Below, piece after piece: positions 1,223 to 55,901 of a stretch of 64,000 nt of DNA. Every line of letters starts with the position of its first letter. The first letter of the stretch is position 1. A program made the translations under genes and the position numbers. The notes under the pieces are model-generated. The model did not search any database, was not told where the DNA came from, and worked only from the letters and a program-made list of their open reading frames with translations. The stretch lies in the NCBI RefSeq assembly GCF_054482525.1, contig NZ_CM137006.1; one strand, written 5' to 3'.

Positions 1223-3505
1223 ATGTCCGAGCTTAATGAAAAGTTAGCCACAGCCTGGGAAGGTTTTACCAAAGGTGACTGGCAGAATGAAGTAAACGTC
1301 CGTGACTTCATTCAGAAAAACTACACTCCGTACGAGGGTGACGAGTCCTTCCTGGCTGGCGCTACTGAAGCGACCACCACCCTGTGGGACAAAGTAATGG
1401 AAGGCGTTAAACTGGAAAACCGCACTCACGCGCCAGTTGACTTTGACACCGCTGTTGCTTCCACCATCACCTCTCACGACGCTGGCTACATCAACAAAGC
1501 GTTGGAAAAAGTTGTTGGTCTGCAGACTGAAGCTCCGCTGAAACGTGCTCTTATCCCGTTCGGTGGTATCAAAATGATCGAAGGTTCCTGCAAAGCGTAC
1601 AACCGCGAACTGGACCCGATGATCAAAAAAATCTTCACTGAATACCGTAAAACTCACAACCAGGGCGTGTTCGACGTTTACACTCCGGACATCCTGCGTT
1701 GCCGTAAATCCGGTGTTCTGACCGGTCTGCCAGATGCTTATGGCCGTGGTCGTATCATCGGTGACTACCGTCGCGTTGCGCTGTACGGTATCGACTACCT
1801 GATGAAAGACAAACTTGCACAGTTCACCTCTCTGCAGGCTGATCTGGAAAACGGCGTAAACCTGGAACAGACTATCCGTCTGCGCGAAGAAATCGCTGAA
1901 CAGCACCGCGCTCTGGGTCAGATGAAAGAAATGGCTGCGAAATACGGCTACGACATCTCTGGTCCGGCTACCAACGCTCAGGAAGCTATCCAGTGGACTT
2001 ACTTTGGCTACCTGGCTGCTGTTAAGTCTCAGAACGGTGCTGCAATGTCCTTCGGTCGTACCTCCACCTTCCTGGATGTGTACATCGAACGTGACCTGAA
2101 AGCTGGCAAGATCACCGAACAAGAAGCGCAGGAAATGGTTGACCACCTGGTCATGAAACTGCGTATGGTTCGCTTCCTGCGTACTCCGGAATACGATGAA
2201 CTGTTCTCTGGCGACCCGATCTGGGCAACCGAATCTATCGGTGGTATGGGCCTCGACGGTCGTACCCTGGTTACCAAAAACAGCTTCCGTTTCCTGAACA
2301 CCCTGTACACCATGGGTCCGTCTCCGGAACCGAACATGACCATTCTGTGGTCTGAAAAACTGCCGCTGAACTTCAAGAAATTCGCCGCTAAAGTGTCCAT
2401 CGACACCTCTTCTCTGCAGTATGAGAACGATGACCTGATGCGTCCGGACTTCAACAACGATGACTACGCTATCGCTTGCTGCGTAAGCCCGATGATCGTT
2501 GGTAAACAAATGCAGTTCTTCGGTGCGCGTGCAAACCTGGCGAAAACCATGCTGTACGCAATCAACGGCGGCGTTGACGAAAAACTGAAAATGCAGGTTG
2601 GTCCGAAGTCTGAGCCGATCAAAGGCGATCTCCTGAACTACGATGAAGTGATGGAGCGCATGGATCACTTCATGGACTGGCTGGCTAAACAGTACATCAC
2701 TGCACTGAACATCATCCACTACATGCACGACAAGTACAGCTACGAAGCCTCTCTGATGGCGCTGCACGACCGTGACGTTATCCGCACCATGGCGTGTGGT
2801 ATCGCTGGTCTGTCCGTTGCTGCTGACTCCCTGTCTGCAATCAAATATGCGAAAGTTAAACCGATTCGTGACGAAGACGGTCTGGCTATCGACTTCGAAA
2901 TCGAAGGCGAATACCCGCAGTTTGGTAACAACGATCCGCGTGTAGATGACCTGGCTGTTGACCTGGTAGAACGTTTCATGAAGAAAATTCAGAAACTGCA
3001 CACCTACCGTGACGCTATCCCGACTCAGTCTGTTCTGACCATCACTTCTAACGTTGTGTATGGTAAGAAAACTGGTAACACCCCAGACGGTCGTCGTGCT
3101 GGCGCGCCGTTCGGACCGGGTGCTAACCCGATGCACGGTCGTGACCAGAAAGGTGCAGTAGCCTCTCTGACTTCCGTTGCTAAACTGCCGTTTGCTTACG
3201 CTAAAGATGGTATCTCCTACACCTTCTCTATCGTTCCGAACGCACTGGGTAAAGACGACGAAGTTCGTAAGACCAACCTGGCTGGTCTGATGGATGGTTA
3301 CTTCCACCACGAAGCATCCATCGAAGGTGGTCAGCACCTGAACGTTAACGTGATGAACCGTGAAATGCTGCTCGACGCGATGGAAAACCCAGAAAAATAT
3401 CCGCAGCTGACCATCCGTGTATCTGGCTACGCAGTACGTTTCAACTCGCTGACTAAAGAACAGCAGCAGGACGTTATTACTCGTACCTTCACTCAATCTA
3501 TGTAA
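1223..3505 (+). CDS. pflB: Pyruvate formate-lyase (760 aa)
   Basis: [31 protein letters not shown]... and C-terminal glycyl-radical region [29 protein letters not shown]; SD-like AAGAAGGTAGG upstream. Confidence 0.97.
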
Positions 3506-3547
3506 TTAGATTTGACTGAAATCGTACAGTAAAAAGCGTACAATAAA

Positions 3548-3573
3548 GGCTCCACGAAAGTGGGGCCTTTTTT
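3548..3573 (+). terminator. Rho-independent terminator downstream of pflB (GGCTCCACgaaaGTGGGGCC + T-run)
   Basis: GC-rich hairpin followed by TTTTTT immediately after the pflB stop. Confidence 0.55.
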
Positions 3574-3696
3574 AGCACGAGAGCCTTTTTTGTCAGCTAT
3601 CTATACTTTAAGGTGACTGCCAAAACAGACTCGACGTAGCCTTCGAGCTGCGCACCAACACGGCCTCAGATGGGCCACATCTGGAGAAACACCGCA

Positions 3697-7749: not shown

Positions 7750-8376
7750 ATGACCAAACCGTATGTTCGTCTTGATAAAAATGATGCTGCCGTTTTGCTT
7801 GTTGATCACCAGGCTGGTTTACTTTCCCTTGTACGGGATATCGAACCCGATAAGTTTAAAAATAACGTGCTGGCGCTGGGCGACCTGGCTAAGTATTTCA
7901 ACTTACCTACTATTCTTACCACCAGTTTTGAAACCGGTCCTAACGGCCCATTAGTTCCAGAACTGAAAGCACAGTTTCCCGATGCACCTTACATTGCTCG
8001 CCCGGGAAATATTAACGCCTGGGATAACGAAGATTTTGTAAAAGCTGTCAAAGCGACAGGTAAAAAACAGTTAATTATTGCCGGTGTGGTAACCGAAGTT
8101 TGCGTGGCATTCCCGGCGCTTTCAGCCATTGAAGAAGGGTTTGACGTCTTTGTCGTGACTGACGCGTCAGGGACCTTTAATGAAATTACCCGGCATTCGG
8201 CATGGGATCGCATGTCGCAAGCTGGTGCGCAATTGATGACATGGTTCGGCGTGGCGTGCGAGCTGCATCGTGACTGGCGTAATGATATTGAAGGACTGGC
8301 GACGTTGTTCTCTAACCATATTCCTGATTATCGTAATTTGATGACCAGTTATGACACGTTAACGAAGCAGAAATAA
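7750..8376 (+). CDS. ycaC: Isochorismatase-family hydrolase YcaC (208 aa)
   Basis: MTKPYVRLDKNDAAVLLVDHQAGLL...; SD GAAAGGAGAAGAGG upstream. Confidence 0.88.
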   Translation: MTKPYVRLDKNDAAVLLVDHQAGLLSLVRDIEPDKFKNNVLALGDLAKYFNLPTILTTSFETGPNGPLVPELKAQFPDAPYIARPGNINAWDNEDFVKAVKATGKKQLIIAGVVTEVCVAFPALSAIEEGFDVFVVTDASGTFNEITRHSAWDRMSQAGAQLMTWFGVACELHRDWRNDIEGLATLFSNHIPDYRNLMTSYDTLTKQK

Positions 8377-45374: not shown

Positions 45375-47813
45375 ATGGCTATCAAAAAAACCGAACTCTA
45401 TTCTTCCCTGTGGGCAAGCTGCGACGAACTGCGTGGCGGGATGGACGCCAGCCAGTACAAAGACTATGTACTGACCCTGCTGTTTATGAAGTACGTTTCC
45501 GATAAGTATAAAGGCGATCCTTACGGGATGATCGTGATACCCAAAGGAGCCAGCTTTGACGATATGGTTGCGCTGAAAAATGACAAAGAGATCGGCGACA
45601 AAATCAACAAAATCATCCACAAGCTGGCGGAAGAGAACGGCCTGAAGGGCGTCATCGACGAAGCCGACTTTAACGACGAAGATAAGCTCGGCAAAGGCAA
45701 GGAAATGATTGACCGCCTGAGCAAGCTTGTCGGTATCTTTGAAGGGTTAAATCTCTCCAGCAACCGGGCCGAAGGCGACGATCTGCTGGGCGATGCCTAT
45801 GAATATCTGATGCGTCACTTCGCAACCGAATCCGGTAAGAGTAAAGGGCAGTTTTACACTCCAGCGGAGGTGTCACGTATTCTGGCGAAGGTGATTGGTA
45901 TTACTCCCGATACTCCGCAAGATGCAACGGTTTATGACCCAACCTGTGGCTCTGGTTCGCTGCTGTTGAAAGTGAATGATGAAGCCCGGCGCGGACTGTC
46001 GATTTTCGGCCAGGAGATGGATAACGCTACCAGTGCGCTGGCGCGGATGAACATGATTCTGCATAACAATGCCACCGCGAAAATCTGGCAGGGCAATACG
46101 CTGAGCGATCCGCAGTGGAAAGAGGCGAACGGCAAACTGAAAGCCTTCGATTTTGCCGTGGCGAACCCGCCTTTTTCCAATAAAAACTGGACCAACGGGC
46201 TGACGCCGAAAAAAGATCCGTTTGAACGCTTCGGCTGGGGTATTCCGCCGGAAAAAAACGGCGATTATGCTTTTTTGTTGCATATCATTAAAAGCCTGAA
46301 AAGTACCGGCAAAGGCGCGGTGATCCTGCCCCACGGCGTACTGTTTCGCGGTAACGCCGAAGCGAATATCCGTGAAAATCTAATCAAGCAGGGCTATATC
46401 AAAGGCGTTATTGGTTTGCCAGCCAACCTGTTTTACGGCACCGGCATCCCGGCGTGCATCATTGTGATTGATAAAGAGCACGCCCACAGCCGCAAAGGCA
46501 TTTTTATGATCGACGCCAGCCGGGGCTTTATCAAAGATGGCAACAAGAACCGCCTGCGTAGCCGAGATATTCACCGCATTGTGGACGTGTTCAACCATCA
46601 GCGAACGGTACCTGGCTACAGCCGGATGGTGCCCTCCAGCGAGATCGCCGGAAATGATTACAACCTGAATATTCCTCGCTATATCGAGAGCGGCGAGCCG
46701 GAAGATTTACACGATCTGACCGCGCACTTACAGGGCGGTATTCCGGCACGCGATGTGGATGCTTTGCAAGATTACTGGCGGGTATTCCCTGCCCTGCGCA
46801 ACGTGCTGTTTGCTGACGACCGTCCCGGTTACTGTCGGGCGCAGGTGAACGCGCAACAGGTGAAACCGACCATTCTGGCGCATCAGGAGTTTAAGGATTT
46901 TGCCACCCGCAGCCTGCTACCGTTTAAAGCGTGGGTGAAAGAGGCAAGTCTGGAAGAGATTCGCAAAGGTGATAAACCCAAAGCGCTAATCCACGATATC
47001 AGCGAAATGCTATTGGCGCAGTACGCCAACAGTGAGTTGCTGAACAAATACAGCGTGTACCAGATCCTGATGGATTACTGGACTGATGTCATGCAAGACG
47101 ATGTGTATGCGATTATGCAGGATGGCTGGCAAGCCGCCGCGCAAATCCGCGAGCTTCAGCCGGTGAAAGGCAAAGATGGCAAAAACATCTGGAAAGAAAC
47201 GCACGATTTCGAGTTTACCAAACGGCGCTACAAGGCCGATGTGCTGCCCCGTTCGCTGGTGGAAATTCGCTGTTTCCCGGAACTGCTGGATGCGCTGAAC
47301 CGCGCGCAGGAGCGCAGTGAAGAAGCCAGTCGTCAGCTAGTGGAATTCATCGAGGAGCAGGCAGGTGAAGAGGATCTGCTGGCCGAGGCGAAGAACGATA
47401 AAGATAAGGTGACGCAAAAGCTGGTGAATGCCCGTCTAGCACAGTTAAAGAAAACCACTGCCGGCCCAGATGAGCTGGCAGTGCTGAACCGCTGCCTGGC
47501 GCTAATTAAGGCCGAAGCCAGTGCGAAAAAAGCGCTGAAAGCCGCACAAGAAGCGCTGGATCGGGCGGTGTTTAAACATTATCCCACGCTGGATGAAGCA
47601 GCGATTAAAACGCTGGTAGTGCAGGATAAGTGGCTGGCAACGTTGCAGGCAGGGATCAAGGCGGAGATTGAGCGTATTACCCAGCAACTGGCGTCGCGCG
47701 TAAAGGAGCTGGAAGAGCGTTATGCTGAACCGTTGCTAGCGCTTGAAGCCTCCGTTGAGGCGTTGAGCGAGAAAGTGGCCGAGCATTTGCGGGCGATGGG
47801 GCTGGAGTGGTGA
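45375..47813 (+). CDS. hsdM: Type I restriction-modification methyltransferase subunit HsdM, unusually long (812 aa) with a C-terminal coiled-coil-like extension
   Basis: AdoMet motif DPTCGSGSLL and catalytic NPPF (VANPPFSNKNW) in the first ~470 aa; last ~300 aa are Ala/Glu/Lys-rich helical. Confidence 0.88.
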   Translation: MAIKKTELYSSLWASCDELRGGMDASQYKDYVLTLLFMKYVSDKYKGDPYGMIVIPKGASFDDMVALKNDKEIGDKINKIIHKLAEENGLKGVIDEADFNDEDKLGKGKEMIDRLSKLVGIFEGLNLSSNRAEGDDLLGDAYEYLMRHFATESGKSKGQFYTPAEVSRILAKVIGITPDTPQDATVYDPTCGSGSLLLKVNDEARRGLSIFGQEMDNATSALARMNMILHNNATAKIWQGNTLSDPQWKEANGKLKAFDFAVANPPFSNKNWTNGLTPKKDPFERFGWGIPPEKNGDYAFLLHIIKSLKSTGKGAVILPHGVLFRGNAEANIRENLIKQGYIKGVIGLPANLFYGTGIPACIIVIDKEHAHSRKGIFMIDASRGFIKDGNKNRLRSRDIHRIVDVFNHQRTVPGYSRMVPSSEIAGNDYNLNIPRYIESGEPEDLHDLTAHLQGGIPARDVDALQDYWRVFPALRNVLFADDRPGYCRAQVNAQQVKPTILAHQEFKDFATRSLLPFKAWVKEASLEEIRKGDKPKALIHDISEMLLAQYANSELLNKYSVYQILMDYWTDVMQDDVYAIMQDGWQAAAQIRELQPVKGKDGKNIWKETHDFEFTKRRYKADVLPRSLVEIRCFPELLDALNRAQERSEEASRQLVEFIEEQAGEEDLLAEAKNDKDKVTQKLVNARLAQLKKTTAGPDELAVLNRCLALIKAEASAKKALKAAQEALDRAVFKHYPTLDEAAIKTLVVQDKWLATLQAGIKAEIERITQQLASRVKELEERYAEPLLALEASVEALSEKVAEHLRAMGLEW

Positions 47814-49147
47814 TGGTGGATTTAATGGTGAATGAGCAACGGTCGAGTACGGCGGGGAAAGATGTGCCTGCGGGGTATAAACTGACTGAGGTGGGCGTGA
47901 TTCCTGAGGATTGGGATTGCGTACCATTTGGTAATCTGTTTAAAACAAACACAAAGAAAAAAAAAGTCAGCGATTATGAGCTAGTTTCATTTATTGGGAT
48001 GCAAGATGTTAGTGAAGATGCACAATTAAAAAATAATACTCAACTTCCTTTTAAAGAAGTTAAAAGTGGTTTTACTTACTTTGAAAAAGGGGATGTTTTA
48101 TTAGCTAAAATAACCCCTTGTTTTGAAAATGGAAAAGGATGTCATACCGCTGATTTACCTACTAATGTAGGTTTTGGGAGTACGGAATTTCATGTATTAA
48201 GGGAAAATGAAGACTCCGATTCTCGCTTCATCTATTTTTGGACAACTGATAAAAAATTCAGAGCATCACTGGAATCTGAAATGGTGGGAAGTGCGGGACA
48301 CCGTCGTGTGCCGCTAGTTGCTATAGAAAAATATTTGATTCCATGTCCCCCAAATTTGCAAGAGCAAAGTGCTATTGCTGATTCATTATCTGATATTAAT
48401 AATTTTATTCTAGCTCTAGAAAAGCTTATCGTTAAAAAACAAGCCATTAAAACCGCTACTATGCAGCGACTACTGACTGGTAAAACCCGTTTGCCACAGT
48501 TTGCGTTGCGCAAAGATGGCTCTGCTAAGGGATATAAAAAGAGCGAGTTGGGGGAGATTCCTGAAGATTGGAATTGTATTAATCTTGGTGAGCTAGGTAA
48601 TTGCATTATTGGGTTAACTTACAAACCTGAAGATACATCTGATTATGGTACATTGGTATTACGCTCATCCAACATTCAAAATAATCACTTAGCTTATGAT
48701 GATAACGTCTTCGTCAGCATAGAACCACCTGAGCGCACAATTGTGAAAGAAGGTGATATCTTGGTATGTGTAAGAAATGGCAGTCGCCAACTTATTGGCA
48801 AATGCGCATTAATTGACAAAAATGCGCAGGGCTCAGCATTCGGTGCATTTATGTCAGTATTCCGAACTGATATATATGGATTTACATTTCACCAATTCCA
48901 GTCTGATATTATTCAAAAGCAAATCGCTGAAGTTATGGGTGCCACTATCAATCAGATAACTAACAAAGATATGTTGGGCTTTAAAATCCCATTACCTGAA
49001 AATACAGAAGAACAAGCCGCCATCGCCGCCATCCTCTCCGATATGGACAAGGAAATCCAGATCCTGCAACAGCGTCTGGACAAAACCCGCCAGCTTAAGC
49101 AAGGGATGATGCAGGAACTGTTAACCGGGAAAATCCGCTTAATATAG
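47813..49147 (+). CDS. hsdS: Type I restriction-modification specificity subunit HsdS (two AT-rich target-recognition domains)
   Basis: Conserved central and C-terminal repeats (…LLTGKTRLPQF… and …QELLTGKIRLI) flanking two variable AT-rich domains; ATG overlaps the hsdM stop (ATGA). Confidence 0.85.
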   Translation: MVDLMVNEQRSSTAGKDVPAGYKLTEVGVIPEDWDCVPFGNLFKTNTKKKKVSDYELVSFIGMQDVSEDAQLKNNTQLPFKEVKSGFTYFEKGDVLLAKITPCFENGKGCHTADLPTNVGFGSTEFHVLRENEDSDSRFIYFWTTDKKFRASLESEMVGSAGHRRVPLVAIEKYLIPCPPNLQEQSAIADSLSDINNFILALEKLIVKKQAIKTATMQRLLTGKTRLPQFALRKDGSAKGYKKSELGEIPEDWNCINLGELGNCIIGLTYKPEDTSDYGTLVLRSSNIQNNHLAYDDNVFVSIEPPERTIVKEGDILVCVRNGSRQLIGKCALIDKNAQGSAFGAFMSVFRTDIYGFTFHQFQSDIIQKQIAEVMGATINQITNKDMLGFKIPLPENTEEQAAIAAILSDMDKEIQILQQRLDKTRQLKQGMMQELLTGKIRLI

Positions 49148-49159
49148 AAGGGAAAGCAC

Positions 49160-49816
49160 ATGGCTTATGATTACAGCGCCAGCCTCAACCCGCAAAAAGC
49201 TCTGATCTGGCGTATCGTCCATCGGGACAATATCCCGTGGATTCTGGATAACGGGCTGCACTGCGGCAACAGTCTGGTGCAGGCGGAAAACTGGATCAAT
49301 ATCGGCAACCCGGAGCTGATCGGCAAGCGTGCCGGGCATCCGGTACCTGTCGGAACGGGCGGGACACTGCATGACTATGTGCCGTTTTATTTTACCCCCT
49401 TCTCGCCAATGCTGATGAACATCCACAGCGGGCGCGGCGGCATTAAGCAACGCCCCAATGAGGAGATCGTTATTCTGGTCAGCAACTTGCGAAACGTGGC
49501 AGCACACGACGTACCCTTCGTGTTTACCGACAGCCATGCTTACTATAACTGGACCAACTACTACACCAGTCTGGATAGTCTGGACCAGATCGACTGGCCC
49601 ATTTTGCAGGCACGGGACTTTCGCCGCGATCCAGACGATCCGGCTAAATTTGAACGCTATCAGGCAGAGGCGCTAATCTGGCAACACTGCCCGATCTCTC
49701 TGCTGGATGGGATAATTTGTTACAGCGAAGAGGTCAGGTTACAATTAGAACAATGGCTGTTTCAGCGTAATCTAACAATGTCCGTTCACACACGGGCTGG
49801 ATGGTACTTCTCATGA
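49160..49816 (+). CDS. darT: DarT-like DNA ADP-ribosyltransferase toxin (DUF4433, 218 aa)
   Basis: [38 protein letters not shown]... matches E. coli DarT as I recall it; followed by a macrodomain gene with overlapping stop/start. Confidence 0.8.
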
Positions 49817-50880
49817 TCACATATACACAAGGCAATTTACTGGACGCACCGGTGGAAGCTCTGGTGAATACGGTTAATACCGTCGGTGTCATGGGGAAAG
49901 GCATCGCGTTGATGTTTAAAGAGCGCTTCCCCGAAAATATGAAAGTCTATGCCCTCGCCTGCAAACAAAAGCAGGTGATCACCGGCAAAATGTTCATTAC
50001 CGAAACCGGGGAACTGATGGGACCGCGCTGGATTGTTAATTTTCCGACCAAACAGCACTGGCGCGCTGATTCCCGCATGGAGTGGATTGAAGATGGCTTG
50101 CAGGACTTACGCCGCTTTTTGATTGAAGAGAACGTGCAGTCCATCGCCATTCCACCACTGGGCGCAGGCAACGGTGGTTTGAACTGGCCGGACGTTCGGG
50201 CGCAGATTGAATCTGCCCTTGGCGACCTTCAGGACGTTGATATCCTGATTTACCAACCGACTGAAAAATACCAGAACGTTGCCAAAAGCACTGGCGTAAA
50301 AAAGCTCACTCCCGCCAGAGCCGCCATCGCTGAACTGGTGCGTCGCTACTGGGTATTGGGGATGGAGTGCAGCCTACTGGAAATCCAGAAACTGGCCTGG
50401 CTGTTACAACGCGCCATTGAGCAGCATCAACAGGACGATATCCTCAAACTGCGGTTTGAAGCTCACTATTATGGCCCCTATGCGCCCAATCTGAACCATC
50501 TGCTTAATGCGCTGGACGGCACCTATCTTAAAGCCGAGAAACGCATCCCGGACAGCCAACCGCTGGATGTGATCTGGTTTAACGATCAGAAAAAAGAACA
50601 CGTTAATGCGTATCTGAACAACGAAGCCAGAGAGTGGCTACCTGCGCTGGAGCAGGTCAGCCAGTTAATTGACGGCTTTGAATCGCCGTTTGGTCTGGAG
50701 TTGCTGGCAACCGTAGACTGGTTGCTGAGCCGTGGCGAATGTCAACCAACGCTGGATTCCGTTAAGGAAGGGCTGCACCAGTGGCCTGCGGGCGAACGCT
50801 GGGCCAGCCGTAAGTTGAGGCTGTTTGATAATAATAATCTGCAATTTGCCATTAACCGCGTAATGGAGTTCCATTGCTGA
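49813..50880 (+). CDS. darG: DarG-like macrodomain antitoxin (about 355 aa; alternative start at 49801)
   Basis: N-terminal macrodomain [39 protein letters not shown]; ATG overlaps the darT stop (ATGA). Confidence 0.8.
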
Positions 50881-50898
50881 GGGTTTAAGGAGCGCCTT

Positions 50899-53800
50899 TT
50901 GAGTACCGTGGGCCAGCGCGAACGCGCCACACAGCAGCGTCTGATTCAGTTTTTTGTTGAAGATTTAGGTTACCGCCATCTGAGTCACCGCACCGGGTAC
51001 ACCGGGAACAGCAACATCGACACTAATATACTGAGCGCGTGGCTAAAACGGCGCGGCGTTAATGATACGTTGATCACCCGGGCGTTGCGGCAACTGGATT
51101 CCGCCGCCGCTCTGGGCGAAGGCAAAAAACTCTATTACGCCAATAAAGAGGTCTATCGCCTGCTGCGTTACGGCGTGAAAGACAAAGAAGGCGCAGGCGA
51201 GCAGAACCAAACCGTGTGGCTGATTGACTGGGCCAACCCACAAGCCAATGATTTCGCCATCGCCGATGAGGTGACGGTCAAAGGCGAGTACTGCAAGCGC
51301 CCGGATCTGGTGCTGTACGTTAACGGCATTGCGCTGGGCGTGATTGAACTTAAGCGTTCGTCAGTGCACGTCAGCGAAGGCATCCGGCAGAATCTCGATA
51401 ATCAAAAGAAAACCTTTATCCGCGATTTCTTCACCACTATGCAGTTAGTGATGGCGGGCAACGATACGCAGGGCCTGCGCTACGGCACCATCGAAACCCC
51501 GGAAAAATACTATCTGGAGTGGAAAGAAGATAATCCAGGCGACTATACACATAAACTCGACTTTCATTTAAGTCGTCTGTGTAGCAAATCCAGGCTGTTG
51601 GATATCGTCCATAATTACATTGCCTTTGATGTCGGGGTGAAAAAACTCTGCCGCCATAATCAGTTCTTCGGCGTCGAGGCGGCTAAACAACATATTGCCC
51701 GTCGTGAAGGCGGTATTATCTGGCACACACAGGGATCGGGTAAAAGCCTGACGATGGTCTGGCTGGCGAAGTGGATCCGTGAAAATGTGCCAAACTCCCG
51801 CGTGTTGATTGTGACTGACCGCACCGAACTGGATGAACAGATCGAAAGCGTGTTTATGGGCGTGAATGAAGATATTTATCGCACCTCCAGCGGCAACGAT
51901 CTTATCGCAACGCTCAATCATCCTAACCCGTGGCTCATTTGCTCGCTGGTGCATAAATTTGGTCGTCGCAGCGAAGCTGAAGACAATGCGGCTACCGACG
52001 CCTTTATCACCGAATTACAGCAGTCCCTGACGAAAACATTCCGCGCCAAAGGCGATCTGTTTGTTTTTGTGGACGAGTGCCACCGCACACAATCCGGCAA
52101 GCTGCATAACGCCATGACTGCCATTCTGCCGGACGCCCTGTTTATCGGTTTTACCGGCACACCGCTGATGAAGAAAGATAAGAAGAAGTCGGTTGAGGTG
52201 TTCGGCCCTTATATCCATACCTATAAATTTGATGAAGCGGTGGCCGACGGTGTGGTGCTGGATCTGCGCTACGAGGCACGCGATATTGACCAGTATCTGA
52301 CATCAGAGAAAAAGGTCGATGACTGGTTTGAAGCCAAGACTCGCGGTTTGTCGAATTTAGCCAGGACCCAGCTTAAGCAAAAGTGGGGATCAATGCAGAA
52401 GCTGCTCTCCAGCAAGTCGCGGCTGGAGCAGATCGTTAACGACATTTTGCTGGATATGGATACCCGTCCACGCCTGATGGACGGGCGCGGCAACGCCATG
52501 CTGGTATGCAGCAGTATCTATCAAGCCTGCAAGGTTTACGAGATGTTCAGCCAGACCGAGCTGGCAGGAAAAGTAGCGATTGTGACCAGCTATCGCCCCG
52601 ATGCCGCCAGCATCAAAGGCGAAGAAACGGGCGAAGGGTTAACGGAGAAACTCTCTAAACACGCCACCTATCGTAAAATGTTGGCTGACTATTTTGAACA
52701 AAGTGAAGAGAAGGCCGCCGCACGCATTACCGAGTTCGAGCGGGAAATGAAACAGCGTTTTATTGAAGAGCCGGGGCAAATGCGCCTGCTTATCGTGGTG
52801 GATAAGCTGCTGACTGGCTTTGACGCGCCGTCCGCCACCTATCTCTACATTGATAAAACCATGACCGACCATACGCTGTTTCAGGCGATTTGTCGGGTGA
52901 ACCGGCTGGACGGTGAGGATAAAGAGTATGGCTATATTATCGATTATAAAGATCTGTTCCGTTCGCTGGATAAAGCGATTACCGATTACACCACGGGCGC
53001 GTTTGATGATTACGATCGGGACGATGTGGCCGGGTTGCTGAAAGACAGGCTGGAGCAGGCGCAACTGGATCTCGACAGCGCGCTGGAGATGGTTCGCAGC
53101 TTATGTGAACCCGTCAAAACCCCGCGCAGCCTGCTGGACTATCAGCACTATTTTTGCGGTGAATCAGGAGAGAATCAGACTTCGTTAAACGAAAAAGAGG
53201 CGCTGCGCCTGACATTTTACCAGTGCGTCGCCCGTCTGCTACGCGCTTATGCCAGCATCGCCAATGAAATGCCGGAAGCAGGCTACACTGCCGAAGAGGT
53301 AGAGAGCATTCGCGCCGAAGTCGCTGAATTCGAAAAACTGCGCTATGAGATTAAGCTGACCAGCGGCGATCTTCTGGATATGAAGCGCTTTGAACCCGCT
53401 ATGCGTCATTTACTGGATATGTATGTTCGCGCCGATGGTAGCGAAGTGCTGATGGATTTTGAAGAGTTAAGTCTGATTGAACTGATTGTCGAGAAAGGCT
53501 TGGCGGCGACCGTCGCCCTGCCGGATGATATCCGTAATAATCAGGATGCGATGGCGGAAACCATCGAAAACAACGTGCGCAAAACCATCGTGGATGAAAA
53601 CCCGGTTAACCCAAAATACTATGGACGCATGTCGCAGCTGCTGGATGAACTGATTACCCTTCGCCGACAAAATGCGCTCAATTATCAGCAGTATCTGGAA
53701 CGTATCCGCGATTTGTGTAAACAGGTCATCCGCCCGGAGCAAACCGCCGGAGCGTGCTACCCTGCCACCATGGATACACAAGCAAAGCGCGCCTTCTATG

Positions 53801-53994
53801 ATAACTTCGGCCACGACGAGGTACTGGCGACCCGCATAGATACGACGATTCGCTATACCAAAAGGGCAGAGTGGATTGGCGATCGTTTTAAAGAACGGGA
53901 AATTGCCAACGCATTACGTGAAGAGACCGCCAGCTATAATATTGATATTGATGAGGTGATAGCGCTTGCCCGTCAGCAGAAGGAATATCACTGA
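50899..53994 (+). CDS. hsdR: Type I restriction enzyme endonuclease/helicase subunit HsdR (1031 aa, TTG start after AAGGAG)
   Basis: Helicase motif I HTQGSGKSLTMV, motif II LFVFVDECHRTQSG; size typical of HsdR. Confidence 0.88.
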   Translation: MSTVGQRERATQQRLIQFFVEDLGYRHLSHRTGYTGNSNIDTNILSAWLKRRGVNDTLITRALRQLDSAAALGEGKKLYYANKEVYRLLRYGVKDKEGAGEQNQTVWLIDWANPQANDFAIADEVTVKGEYCKRPDLVLYVNGIALGVIELKRSSVHVSEGIRQNLDNQKKTFIRDFFTTMQLVMAGNDTQGLRYGTIETPEKYYLEWKEDNPGDYTHKLDFHLSRLCSKSRLLDIVHNYIAFDVGVKKLCRHNQFFGVEAAKQHIARREGGIIWHTQGSGKSLTMVWLAKWIRENVPNSRVLIVTDRTELDEQIESVFMGVNEDIYRTSSGNDLIATLNHPNPWLICSLVHKFGRRSEAEDNAATDAFITELQQSLTKTFRAKGDLFVFVDECHRTQSGKLHNAMTAILPDALFIGFTGTPLMKKDKKKSVEVFGPYIHTYKFDEAVADGVVLDLRYEARDIDQYLTSEKKVDDWFEAKTRGLSNLARTQLKQKWGSMQKLLSSKSRLEQIVNDILLDMDTRPRLMDGRGNAMLVCSSIYQACKVYEMFSQTELAGKVAIVTSYRPDAASIKGEETGEGLTEKLSKHATYRKMLADYFEQSEEKAAARITEFEREMKQRFIEEPGQMRLLIVVDKLLTGFDAPSATYLYIDKTMTDHTLFQAICRVNRLDGEDKEYGYIIDYKDLFRSLDKAITDYTTGAFDDYDRDDVAGLLKDRLEQAQLDLDSALEMVRSLCEPVKTPRSLLDYQHYFCGESGENQTSLNEKEALRLTFYQCVARLLRAYASIANEMPEAGYTAEEVESIRAEVAEFEKLRYEIKLTSGDLLDMKRFEPAMRHLLDMYVRADGSEVLMDFEELSLIELIVEKGLAATVALPDDIRNNQDAMAETIENNVRKTIVDENPVNPKYYGRMSQLLDELITLRRQNALNYQQYLERIRDLCKQVIRPEQTAGACYPATMDTQAKRAFYDNFGHDEVLATRIDTTIRYTKRAEWIGDRFKEREIANALREETASYNIDIDEVIALARQQKEYH

Positions 53995-54710
53995 TGCCAA
54001 TCATGCAAATAGGCTCGTTACACTTGCTGGTCAACCGTAAGGCGATTAAGAATCTGCATATCAGCGTGCTGCCGCCTGATGGCAAAGTACGCGTTTCAGC
54101 GCCGGAACATATGACGGAGACGGCGATTCGTATGGCGGTTGCTTCACGCTTTCGCTGGATCAGAAAACAGCAGCAGGATTTCGCCAGACAGCCTCGTCAA
54201 TCAGAGAGGGAAATGGTCAGCGGAGAGTGCCACTATCTTTGGGGCCGAAGATATCGCCTACTTGTGATTGAGCGTCACGGGCGTCACGAAGTAAAAGTTG
54301 CAGGAAATAATAAGCTCCAGCTTTATGTTCAACCAGGAACCCGTGATGAAAATAAGGCATTGGCGTTAAGTGAATTTTATCGACATGAACTAAAACAGCA
54401 GGTGGCTAAGCTTCTACCTGAATGGCAGGACCGAATCGGTGTTCCCCTAACATTCTGGGGCATCAAAAAGATGAAAACCTTTTGGGGCACCTGTAACACT
54501 ACAACAAAACGAATCTGGCTCAATCTGGAGCTAATTAAGAAGCCGCCGGAGTGTCTGGAGTATATTCTGGTGCATGAACTGGTTCATCTTCTGGAACGTC
54601 ACCATAATGCTCGCTTCCGGTTGCATATGGATCGGTTTATTCCTGACTGGCGTGAGCGTCGGGATTTGTTAAATAATATGCCGTTAGCGTTTGAGGCATG
54701 GGAGTATTGA
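53994..54710 (+). CDS. Zinc metallopeptidase-like protein (YgjP/DUF45/M48-like, HExxH), start overlapping the hsdR stop
   Basis: HELVHLLERHH motif; ATG at 53994 overlaps the hsdR TGA. Confidence 0.7.
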   Translation: MPIMQIGSLHLLVNRKAIKNLHISVLPPDGKVRVSAPEHMTETAIRMAVASRFRWIRKQQQDFARQPRQSEREMVSGECHYLWGRRYRLLVIERHGRHEVKVAGNNKLQLYVQPGTRDENKALALSEFYRHELKQQVAKLLPEWQDRIGVPLTFWGIKKMKTFWGTCNTTTKRIWLNLELIKKPPECLEYILVHELVHLLERHHNARFRLHMDRFIPDWRERRDLLNNMPLAFEAWEY

Positions 54711-55079
54711 TTGAGCCTGTAACTGTTTTTTGTCCATAAATTAACCTTCATTTGATGCTGGATTGAACATATCAAAATCAGACAATTACACAAATCTATG
54801 TACAGGCTCTTCAATTTGTTTTTGATCGCTGATGTGACTGACAACAAACGCTCACGGAACACTAAATCCCGCTCTTCAGACGTTAACTCGCCTCGCTCAA
54901 TAAGCTCTCTGATAGAATCTCGTGGCGTTGGCGTGACTACTTCAAAACAAAAAGTCTCACCATTTTTCTCGGCGACAAAGTCTGGTCCAGCATCCTTGCT
55001 TTTAATGTCGCTAAAGCCCATCTCCATAAGGTAGCCTGAGTTTAACGGACACTCCTTCGTAAGGACGCTGTAAGCAGAA

Positions 55080-55659
55080 ACGCAAGTTCAGAGCGACTAC
55101 GAACTCGAACCACAATCTGCCAGTTGCGCCAAATCTGCTGAACCAGACGTTCGCTCCTACAGCACCAAATCAGGTCTGGGTGGCGGACCTGACGTATGTT
55201 GCCACACAGGAGGGATGGTTGTACCTCGCTGGCATCAAAGATGTTTATACGTGCGAAATTGTCGGCTACGCCATGGGAGAGCGCATGACAAAAGAGCTGA
55301 CAGGTAAAGCCCTGTTTATGGCGCTCAGGAGCCAGCGCCCACCTGCCGGGCTAATCCATCACTCTGATCGAGGTTCACAGTACTGCGCATACGATTACCG
55401 GATCATACAGGAGCAGTTTGGTCTGAAAACGTCAATGTCGCGTAAAGGTAACTGTTACGACAACGCTCCGATGGAAAGCTTCTGGGGAACGCTGAAAAAT
55501 GAGAGCCTGAGCCACTATCGTTTTAATAACCGGGATGAAGCCATCTCAGTAATACGGGAATACATTGAGATTTTCTACAATCGTCAGCGTCGTCACTCTC
55601 GTCTGGGGAATATCTCCCCGGCAGCCTTCAGGGAAAAATATCATCAGATGACTGCTTAA
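55080..55659 (+). mobile_element. IS3-family transposase fragment (C-terminal DDE/integrase part of orfB only)
   Basis: ...PNQVWVADLTYVATQEGWLYLAGIKDVYTCEIVGYAM...HSDRGSQYCAYDY...NCYDNAPMESFWGTLKNE... is the DDE-domain C-terminal half; no N-terminal half, orfA or inverted repeats seen. Confidence 0.75.
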
Positions 55660-55901
55660 AAAAGAACAAATGGTAGTGTCCGCTATTGCCAGTACACCTC
55701 AGGTATCAAAAAGCGATAGATGCAGCTAATACACGACATAACCAAGAAATAAATCATTAAACGACAACACTTAATACCATATTGTGAAGATGTTCAGACA
55801 TGGCGGAATTCCCCTATTCTTTGTTGGCACTTACAACAGACTATATTCCGCCATATCTGTCTTTATTGTGTATAAACCATCGATACTGATGTTTGATAGT
55901 G

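Follow-up and report, generated by a model that had tools for sequence, protein, structure and literature searches.

In the window (the whole stretch of DNA that was analysed, 64,000 nucleotides in length), an M48/YgjP-like metallopeptidase gene is the last gene of an hsdMS-darTG-hsdR module. The DNA behind it had been singled out in an earlier note, which placed in the interval 54599–55180 a minus-strand open reading frame (ORF) starting about 50 bp from an IS3-family remnant and overlapping the end of the metallopeptidase gene with its 3' part, possibly the surviving piece of a gene destroyed by IS insertion. The following features were delimited at this locus:

53994–54710, plus strand: M48/YgjP-like metallopeptidase gene, intact (Pfam YgjP-like; annotated WP_001122107.1)
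54599–55027, minus strand: 142-aa ORF, ATG to stop, a chimera of a junction ATG, 73 gene-derived codons and 69 read-through codons
54713–54809, minus strand: end remnant of IS1414 (IS256 family), 97 bp, transposase-proximal end, with the outer terminus at 54809
54810–55030, minus strand: fragment of a destroyed gene, corresponding to nt 331–551 and residues 112–184 of the 414-aa WP_000901780.1 family
55027–55058, plus strand: IS600 left inverted repeat (IRL) region, IS600 nt 1–32, placed by alignment to the full IS600
55059–55701, plus strand: IS600 3' part, comprising the C-terminal integrase core of orfB and the right inverted repeat, which ends ...CACCTCA at 55701

Composition of the DNA behind the metallopeptidase gene

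The metallopeptidase gene is covered by the YgjP-like Pfam profile almost from end to end (E 1.4e-61, profile positions 5–206 of 207). The first 100 nt after it were considered as ordinary intergenic DNA, a reading that was rejected, as they are an IS1414 end. This remnant is bounded by a 9-bp inverted repeat (GAGCCTGTA...TACAGGCTC), is 97.9% identical (blastn) to nt 1222–1318 of a segment spanning a full 1,315-bp copy (such a copy is annotated in strain FDN-9), and keeps just the first 8 codons of the transposase gene (ATG at 54737–54735, minus strand). Four to six unrelated contexts are identical up to ...GTACAGGCTC and then diverge at once, which defines the IS1414 terminus and places the edge at 54809|54810 exactly on it. 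A literature search for IS1414 together with MITE returned no papers.

From this edge on, 1,007 bp of the intact loci (a spacer plus codons 185–414 of the gene described below) are absent, and what follows is the gene fragment. It measures 221 bp, i.e., 73 of 414 codons instead of a full-length gene of ~400–415 aa, and it occupies the genomic position expected for the WP_000901780.1 family, with 97.7% nucleotide identity (blastn) between window positions 54810–55030 and positions 8000–8220 of an intact locus (L003). Its right limit is ambiguous within 55026–55030. No other part of the 414-aa protein was detected anywhere in the window by tblastn.

On the right, the IS3-family remnant seen beside the ORF was identified as IS600, with both terminal inverted repeats and the integrase core of orfB present. 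Its left inverted repeat starts at 55027–55031 and replaces everything upstream of codon 112; IS600 nt 3–32 match 55029–55058 at 100% identity (blastn), and at nt 2 an A may replace G, or else the first 2–4 nt may be gene-derived. The 3' part is 98.8% identical to IS600 nt 620–1264 (blastn), carries the Pfam domains rve, rve_2 and rve_3 on 55180–55659, and was annotated by PGAP as an IS600 transposase pseudogene (55066–55659). Between it and the IRL, 578 bp of IS600 were deleted at a CTTC microhomology; this took orfA and the 5' part of orfB and left no complete transposase, and a further 10 bp (AGCTAAGGCT) were lost between 55064 and 55065 in the sub-lineage of the window. The distance of about 50 bp between the ORF start and the element does not hold: the IRL begins on or against the ATG (55027–55031), and the supposed gap is made up of the IRL, which runs to 55058, and of the internal IS600 sequence fused to it. 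The interval first proposed is correspondingly correct for 54599–55027, the extent of the ORF, and 55028–55180 is IS600 DNA. As the two flanks of IS600 differ (cca vs. ggt), there is no direct repeat or target-site duplication around it; the other flank is unrelated DNA on the side of a dcu transporter.

The 142-aa reading frame

The ORF itself could be confirmed together with its quoted translation, as could the overlap on the opposite strand, its last 112 nt (54599–54710) being antisense to the 3' end of the M48 gene; a meaningful overlap of two genes was rejected, the overlap being read-through. Only codons 1–73 are gene-derived (within 54810–55030), and they aligned by BLASTP with residues 112–184 of the 414-aa protein at 93–95% identity (E 4e-46 to 2e-48). 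Codons 74–142 read through the IS1414 remnant and then through the M48 3' end in antisense; they matched nothing in the 414-aa protein (BLASTP) and have no homologue, which leaves the product as a whole without one. The ATG at 55025–55027 lies on the IS600 junction, at a site where the intact alleles read CTT TTG GAG ATG and the window CTT ATG GAG ATG, the native codon being an internal TTG (Leu112) and not a start. It may derive from the terminal T of IS600 or from a point mutation. The 142-aa ORF exists because the junction supplies an in-frame ATG for the 73 codons that survive, after which 69 more happen to be free of stops.

The length of the ORF is not beyond chance, since 75 ORFs of at least 142 aa were counted in the window, 29 of them shadow ORFs, in which a longer ORF covers over half of the length. 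What does exceed chance is the homology of codons 1–73 to a real protein. Pfam returned only sub-threshold noise on the ORF (TIMP, DUF5070), the Rfam scan of 54400–55900 gave 0 matches, and 0 promoter-like sites were predicted in 54500–55300. No CDS was annotated by PGAP over the ORF in any RefSeq record inspected. When the 75-aa fragment was used in a word-indexed protein search, a single cluster (P0001) was retrieved, itself a variant relic.

These data bear on whether the ORF could be a genuine expressed chimeric gene, produced by IS-mediated fusion and encoding a small functional protein, which we consider extremely improbable. It does offer 142 open codons beginning with ATG, its configuration is retained at ≥ 99% identity in ~190 genomes, and for a variant of it (P0001) a product of 100 aa was predicted by a different gene caller. 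Against this, the genomes are nearly identical here because the entire locus has a recent common ancestor and not through selection, and in TW10598 the fragment was even recut by an IS66-family element. Neither a promoter-like site nor, in the records inspected, a PGAP call accompanies the ORF, frames as long as this one arise often by chance in the window, residues 74–142 are antisense to the M48 gene and without homologue, and the 73 residues that were kept lack part of the fold core. The relic would be functionless, since the helix with the invariant E104 is missing from it, as are the fourth core strand (N206/D207) and all of the C-terminal half of the parent protein. It is very probable that the ORF is a dead relic of a nuclease-like gene trapped between two IS ends, and no evidence contradicting the relic interpretation was found. 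Annotation of the ORF as a gene is not warranted, and it deserves a flag as pseudogene or remnant at most.

Intact loci and the origin of the breaks

The comparison with intact RM/DarTG loci that the earlier note had recommended was decisive for the idea of gene destruction. Had nothing homologous to 54810–55030 followed the M48 gene in such loci, the idea would have had to be given up; the opposite was found. In all four strains in which the locus was inspected (CFIAFB20180511, 1303, C311 and C4), the order hsdM-hsdS-darT-darG-hsdR-M48 continues with a convergent gene that is complete at 410–416 codons, and STEC2017-197 is a fifth genome with the full-length gene. Based on a DNA search of E. 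coli genomes (not a protein search), the full-length gene follows the module in 5 of 5,426 complete genomes, and the 221-bp piece alone is retained in ~193 of them. The ancestral order behind M48 comprises the 97-bp IS1414 end remnant, a spacer of ~313 nt that opens with IS66-family debris, and the convergent 414-codon gene. An integrase-core pseudogene located upstream of the intact gene in CFIAFB20180511 was considered as a copy of the same IS600, an identity that would have explained the rearrangement by homologous recombination, and was rejected for lack of blastn similarity.

Since the intact loci carry the complete gene after M48, destruction of a gene through IS activity is supported, and the idea needs several corrections. 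What survives is indeed a piece of a 414-codon gene (nt 331–551) with both breaks at IS termini. This piece is internal (residues 112–184) and not the N-terminus, and the ORF's 3' half, with the part that overlaps the metallopeptidase gene, is non-homologous read-through. Nor was the event a simple insertion, as the deletions abut two IS ends and IS600 has no target-site duplication.

Both truncations would have been IS-mediated, through adjacent deletion or recombination between IS copies, after which IS600 would have lost 578 bp internally and, in a sub-lineage, 10 bp more. The order of these events and the involvement of a transposase are read solely from the coincidence of the breaks with IS termini. 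It is unlikely that both truncations are instead ordinary illegitimate deletions that ended beside the IS by chance, with no role for a transposase. The IS1414 remnant encodes no transposase, so that an enzyme acting in trans would be required for any cleavage, the local IS600 is defective, and deletions of the microhomology type do occur in the locus (CTTC in IS600; the 10-bp loss), all of which would fit such an origin. The left break, though, coincides to the nucleotide with the end of the IS1414 inverted repeat, a terminus defined independently by the 4–6 unrelated contexts, and the right one, within 4 nt, with the first position of the IS600 IRL; two such coincidences are improbable by chance, and a missing target duplication, as seen at IS600, is what an IS-associated deletion or a recombination of two IS copies would be expected to leave.

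IS-mediated truncation also agrees with the IS-flanked pseudogene remnants of E. coli genomic islands, in which, like here, the fragment is bounded precisely by IS termini, no target duplication is present, and the IS copies themselves are decayed. This combination is the classical outcome of IS-associated deletion. In comparison with those remnants, the feature is ordinary genome debris, and the only notable points are that two IS families delimit 221 bp and that the junction creates an in-frame ATG.

The E. coli genomes show the locus in different states: with the intact gene, with the 221-bp relic, with the relic cut once more by an IS66-family element (TW10598), or with the gene absent, as in E2348/69, where the module is present and the gene has left no trace. 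This variation is relevant to the proposal that the type I RM/DarTG/M48 module once had a functional accessory in the parent gene, whose loss alters the system. In each of the five E. coli genomes with the full-length gene, the gene does follow directly on M48. It is nevertheless convergent to M48, with IS1414 and IS66 debris lying between the two; the RM/DarTG/M48 module is otherwise intact in ~190 genomes that lack the gene, and E2348/69 likewise has the module without it; and the homologues in other genera are not located beside RM or M48 genes (in the seven contexts read, neither type I RM nor YgjP-like genes were enriched), all of which makes an accessory role highly improbable.

The parent family and its predicted nuclease core

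The parent protein WP_000901780.1 (414 aa) is a hypothetical protein, as are by name all 83 clusters of its family, which are ~410 aa long and spread across Proteobacteria (genera include E. coli, Klebsiella, Yersinia, Serratia, Pseudomonas, Stenotrophomonas, and Aeromonas). None of the 83 clusters has a Pfam domain, the intact protein gave no meaningful match in Pfam or NCBIfam, its only PHROGs match was phrog_8571, of unknown function (E 4e-8), and a literature search with the protein accessions returned no papers. The invariant positions are E104, G125-P126-D127, E140 and K182. In the AF2 model of the parent protein (pLDDT 83.7), residues 95–206 are predicted to form an alpha-beta-beta-beta-alpha-beta core, which corresponds to the core of the PD-(D/E)xK fold (e.g., CdiA-CT 4g6v, XisH 2okf, NgoMIV 1fiu, Hjc 1gef, NucC and HamA). 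The invariant acidic residues are placed as expected for this fold (E104 on the helix, D127 at strand 2, E140 on strand 3); it differs in the lysine of the (D/E)xK motif, which is Val or Ile in the parent family and for which the invariant K182 or the near-invariant K132 might stand in. The parent protein has no Pfam PDDEXK match, Foldseek of the model against the PDB gave no significant hit (best E 0.16), and a profile search of PDB sequences with the family gave 0 matches.

Two single-gene defence systems described as 'nuclease', PD-T7-1 (E. coli ECOR46; Vassallo et al. 2022, PMC9519451) and PD-T7-5, have been validated (PMC9519451; PMC10952713). PD-T7-1 is an anti-phage 'nuclease', and protection when it is expressed (T7, T-even phages) was reported only with the ECOR46 protein RCQ85672.1 (PMC9519451). 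All 35 parent-family members compared matched the PADLOC PD-T7-1 model (PDLC04073) at E ≤ 0.01, with a best E of 1.6e-7 and with distant relatives reaching 3.4e-11, and the PD-T7-5 model was matched by 6 of the 35 and by 8 of 10 sampled distant relatives. In the parent E. coli protein the match is weak and covers ~60 of 452 positions instead of the full-length profile (residues 97–156 vs. PD-T7-1 positions 162–221; E 6.6e-6, 23 bits); the 73 residues present in the window alone reach E 0.003. The parent family has a homologous core of ~60–130 residues in common with the PD-T7-1 model, its distant relatives match both models, and the parent gene likewise stands alone, is predicted to encode a nuclease region of the PD-(D/E)xK or RmuC-like type (PMC10952713; PMC10270631), and is found in islands and mobile elements. 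It differs in size (414 aa vs. ~450 and ~346 positions), and the flanking domains are unmatched.

The neighbourhoods of the parent gene (seven contexts) have no conserved neighbour and are usually islands with TA, defence or IS genes, two of the seven (Aeromonas, after parC, and Stenotrophomonas) not being obvious defence islands. Since the gene stands beside orphan toxin/immunity modules of contact-dependent inhibition (CDI) and cdiA/cdiI in the four inspected intact E. coli loci, it could also be taken for an orphan toxin/immunity module of the neighbouring CDI region and not for a phage-defence nuclease. This is quite improbable: the integrase-core pseudogene separates the gene from the CDI modules, the gene is a self-contained ORF of ~410 aa with a long N-terminal helical region of its own, no CDI, VENN or polymorphic-toxin family was among the Pfam or NCBIfam matches, and six other genera or contexts hold neither CDI genes nor a conserved small downstream partner. 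The similarity to CdiA-CT is that of the generic PD-(D/E)xK fold, with restriction enzymes, Hjc, and NucC appearing in the same list.

By analogy with PD-T7-1 and PD-T7-5, we tentatively regard it as plausible that the parent is a stand-alone PD-(D/E)xK-type nuclease, most likely a single-gene anti-phage effector. It is possible, if rather doubtful, that it represents an undescribed family of ~410-aa single-gene anti-phage nucleases, distantly related to the two systems, as one branch of a larger uncharacterised superfamily (1,112 representatives at 50% clustering), with the window recording its IS-driven loss. If so, the window would document repeated IS-driven loss from an RM/DarTG defence island. 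The fragment in the window is inert whichever reading of the parent gene holds. The true edge of the RM/DarTG/M48 module is the stop codon of the M48 gene, and the DNA beyond it is a hot spot of IS-driven rearrangement, for which E. coli genomes show at least four states. The only database link of the parent gene leads to two experimentally validated defence proteins, and the intact WP_000901780.1 and its relatives (solitary, horizontally mobile, and nuclease-like) are a cheap candidate for phage defence.

Composition of the minus-strand ORF

The earlier note had described a minus-strand ORF whose 3' part overlaps the end of a metallopeptidase gene; an ORF with the quoted translation is indeed present in the ORF listing, between the M48/YgjP-like gene that closes the hsdMS-darTG-hsdR module (hereafter M48) and an IS3-family ORF, and its final 112 nt overlap the M48 3' end on the opposite strand:

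54599-55027, minus strand, ORF of 142 aa
53994-54710, plus strand, M48/YgjP-like metallopeptidase gene (Pfam YgjP-like, E 1.4e-61)
55180-55659, plus strand, IS3-family integrase-core ORF (Pfam rve, rve_2, rve_3)

The window is E. coli chromosome, and 54550-55200 was 100% identical in AH65, AH62 and five other genomes (DNA search). The RefSeq records of these strains give the order hsdM, hsdS, darT, darG, hsdR, M48, IS600 transposase pseudogene, C4-dicarboxylate transporter, racemase and hypT, with no CDS annotated at the ORF position. As the window holds 75 ORFs of at least 142 aa, 29 of them shadow ORFs, the size of the ORF alone proves nothing.

Segment 54811-55036 is contained, nearly always unannotated, in 198 of 5,426 complete E. 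coli genomes (DNA search). In strain CFIAFB20180511 it falls within a CDS named 'hypothetical protein', namely the convergent 414-codon gene (WP_000901780.1) that follows the hsdM-hsdS-darT-darG-hsdR-M48 module. Blastn of this intact locus (L003) against the window gave two collinear blocks, each 97.7% identical (L003 1197-6992 = window 49007-54809; L003 8000-8220 = window 54810-55030), so that the window lacks 1,007 bp (L003 6993-7999) and all sequence past L003 8220. By BLASTP, the translated ORF, suggested previously as a possible surviving piece of a gene, corresponds over residues 1-73 to residues 112-184 of the intact protein (68/73 identical, E 4e-46), with 71/75 identities to another E. 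coli allele (P0002), but its residues 74-142 match nothing, the intact protein included. With the 414-aa protein as query, tblastn recovered only residues 111-186 from the whole window. Judged by these alignments, the ORF is a chimera, of which just 221 bp are gene-derived (54810-55030, hereafter the relic); the interval in the earlier note was thus wrongly delimited, the left inverted repeat of an IS600 already beginning within 55027-55031. Promoter and Rfam scans revealed no promoter-like sites or Rfam families around the relic.

When the full 414-codon gene was searched in the 5,426 complete genomes, 95-100% of it was found in five (CFIAFB20180511, 1303, C311, STEC2017-197 and C4), while about 193 keep only nt 331-551, as the window does. 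The comparison with intact loci proposed earlier was made for four of the five (CFIAFB20180511, 1303, C311 and C4), and in all four M48 is followed by the convergent 414-aa gene, an integrase-core pseudogene, CDI orphan modules and cdiI/cdiA.

Insertion sequence termini at the two break points

The ~100 nt 3' of the M48 stop have matches in 4,620 of 5,426 E. coli genomes, for which IS256/IS1414 transposase is a frequent annotation; in FDN-9 the match takes in 25 nt at the start of the IS1414 transposase gene and the 72 nt between it and the element's end. Window 54713-54809 equals the terminal 97 nt of the 1,315-bp IS1414 copy of FDN-9 (97.9% identical, blastn). Contexts were aligned at this end, up to six per alignment (a full IS1414 copy, the window, E2348/69, the intact CFIAFB20180511 locus, a post-nleA site in O111:H8, the Stx2 prophage site of O157:H7 and a diverged K-12 copy), and share identity up to ...ATGTACAGGCTC, diverging from the next base on. 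Because identity ends at one base in all of them, 54809 is the true outer IS terminus. In intact loci the terminus is followed by a 313-nt spacer and then the 3' end of the gene; the first ~68 nt of this spacer (L003 6993-7060) match IS66-family elements (ISEc23/IS682), so that even the 'intact' configuration rests on layered IS debris. In the window, codon 184 directly abuts the terminus (54809|54810), and the 1,007-bp deletion thus begins at the exact IS end.

The IS1414-derived 97-bp unit carries a perfect 9-bp inverted repeat at its ends (GAGCCTGTA...TACAGGCTC). Units with the same two boundaries lie at unrelated sites, after M48 (window, E2348/69), after nleA (O111:H8) and, in an O157:H7 prophage, between the Q antiterminator and the tRNAs that precede stx2, which suggests that the unit may be a MITE-like mobilised mini-element rather than a repeated identical truncation. 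A literature search found no paper tying IS1414 to a MITE.

The right junction, at 55027-55031, is the left inverted repeat of a defective IS600: in an alignment with complete IS600, window T-A-AGGTAGCCTGAGTTTAACGGACACTCCTTC corresponds to IS600 nt 1-32 (TGAGGTAGCC...). Blastn matched IS600 nt 3-32 to 55029-55058 (100%) and nt 620-1264 to 55060-55701 (98.8%). This copy (55027-55701) keeps both inverted repeats but is missing 578 bp of its interior, deleted at a CTTC microhomology, and is hence a non-autonomous derivative. A further 10 bp (AGCTAAGGCT), retained in most carriers (about 180 genomes, the 98.5% class), are lost between 55064 and 55065 in the 100%-identity sub-lineage, that of the window (seven genomes). 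Homology to the parent gene stops within 55026-55030, where the coding strand reads CTT TTG GAG ATG in the intact allele and CTT ATG GAG ATG in the window, which places the ORF start codon on the junction; this ATG, which stems from the IS600 terminal T or from a point change, replaces the internal Leu112 codon. IS600 is flanked by different bases (cca vs ggt), and the DNA on its far side is unrelated; this is not a simple insertion. Compared with the intact allele, the first 111 codons and the CDI region upstream were lost or exchanged.

The proposal that a gene was destroyed by IS activity is supported, with break points at IS1414 and IS600 termini, but the event was not a simple insertion. 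We infer the mechanism from a single observation, the coincidence of the two break points with IS termini: an IS-associated deletion, by adjacent deletion or by recombination between IS copies, would have been followed by decay of the IS elements. In TW10598 (L004 6001-6260) the relic is truncated a second time, 133 bp in, and IS66-family genes follow directly, and E2348/69 retains M48, the IS1414 unit and the first part of the spacer, with no trace of the parent gene; from such comparisons, the region past M48 is a putative rearrangement hot spot.

The RM/DarTG/M48 module (window ~47800-55700, compared with the wider CFIAFB20180511 region, L023) is found in different chromosomal settings. The window lineage has it beside the dcu transporter, racemase and hypT, and the surrounding CP4-like island also carries Ag43, YeeU/CbtA and a tRNA-Ser; the island that houses it in CFIAFB20180511 carries cdiBAI, a TOTE primase gene and, adjoining RtT/ycdU, a tyrosine integrase. 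The module appears to move or to undergo exchange as one unit. Of the four inspected genomes with the 414-aa gene, three have darT annotated as frameshifted (CFIAFB20180511, L003 1384-1999; 1303 and C311, L005 and L007, each 3079-3694); darT is intact in C4 and in the window lineage, whose 414-aa gene is destroyed. The pattern may be coincidence or lineage structure.

The parent gene and the status of the relic

Neither Pfam nor NCBIfam assigns the intact 414-aa protein to a family. Homologues about 400-415 aa long come from E. coli, Klebsiella, Lelliottia, Yersinia, Serratia, Dickeya, Proteus, Pseudomonas, Stenotrophomonas, Aeromonas, Burkholderia and Acidovorax; they form 83 clusters, every one named 'hypothetical', and the ~400-aa homologues share 40-95% identity. 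Searching 1.84 billion representatives with a profile returned 1,112 relatives (371 at E <= 1e-10), most of them ~300 aa long and matching the N-terminal ~250 profile positions. Invariant residues include E104, G125-P126-D127, E140, T143, K182, N206-D207 and R324-E325. The AlphaFold model (pLDDT 83.7, pTM 0.85) has an N-terminal helical region, an alpha-beta-beta-beta-alpha-beta core (residues 95-206) and a beta-rich C-terminal half, and Foldseek listed mostly PD-(D/E)xK folds for it, without significance.

The single PADLOC match of the intact protein was PD-T7-1 (E 6.6e-6, residues 97-156 against profile positions 162-221 of 452). PD-T7-1 was matched by 35/35 aligned family members, six of which also matched PD-T7-5, and nine of ten sampled distant relatives, none with a Pfam domain, matched one or both (E down to 3.4e-11). 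These two are single-gene systems from functional selection, listed as 'Nuclease' (PMC9519451), with predicted PD(D/E)XK or RmuC-like regions (PMC10952713; PMC10270631). Membership of either family was considered for the parent protein and rejected, as only its core matches the profile. Unlike the (D/E)xK motif, the parent family has Val or Ile in place of the canonical Lys, so that its catalysis is only putative. Our preferred reading, at a likelihood we place slightly short of even, is that the parent is a stand-alone PD-(D/E)xK-type nuclease working like the PD-T7-1/PD-T7-5 defence proteins.

No conserved partner gene was seen beside homologues in the seven contexts inspected, five of which are mobile or defence-type islands. 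The homologue lies next to a UvrD/PDDEXK_1 helicase-nuclease and an IS3 element in P. aeruginosa, beside HigBA in an ICE in Yersinia, in a CP4-57-like island with a large helicase and an AAA_15/AAA_21 ATPase in Klebsiella, and beside CcdAB, an integrase and an IS3 element in Dickeya. The Stenotrophomonas (miscellaneous genes) and Aeromonas (after parC) contexts are not obviously defence islands. In the P. aeruginosa loci (L008-L012 3353-7779) a conserved trio precedes the homologue, encoding proteins of 872-884 aa, 1,058 aa (UvrD-helicase/PDDEXK_1) and 403 aa, the first and last without a Pfam match; it looks like an uncharacterised helicase-nuclease defence-type cassette.

The 73 surviving residues retain strands 1-3 and the greater part of the helix after them, with D127, E140 and K182; the E104 helix, strand 4 and the entire C-terminal half are missing. 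On their own, the 73 residues match PD-T7-1 at E 0.003. The relic is best regarded as non-functional, and is a commonplace pseudogene fragment bounded by IS sequences. P0001, a 100-aa 'protein' found in public databases, appears to be read through from a variant of the relic, and illustrates how such relics enter protein databases. The only lead we would retain is the intact parent gene, a candidate defence nuclease.
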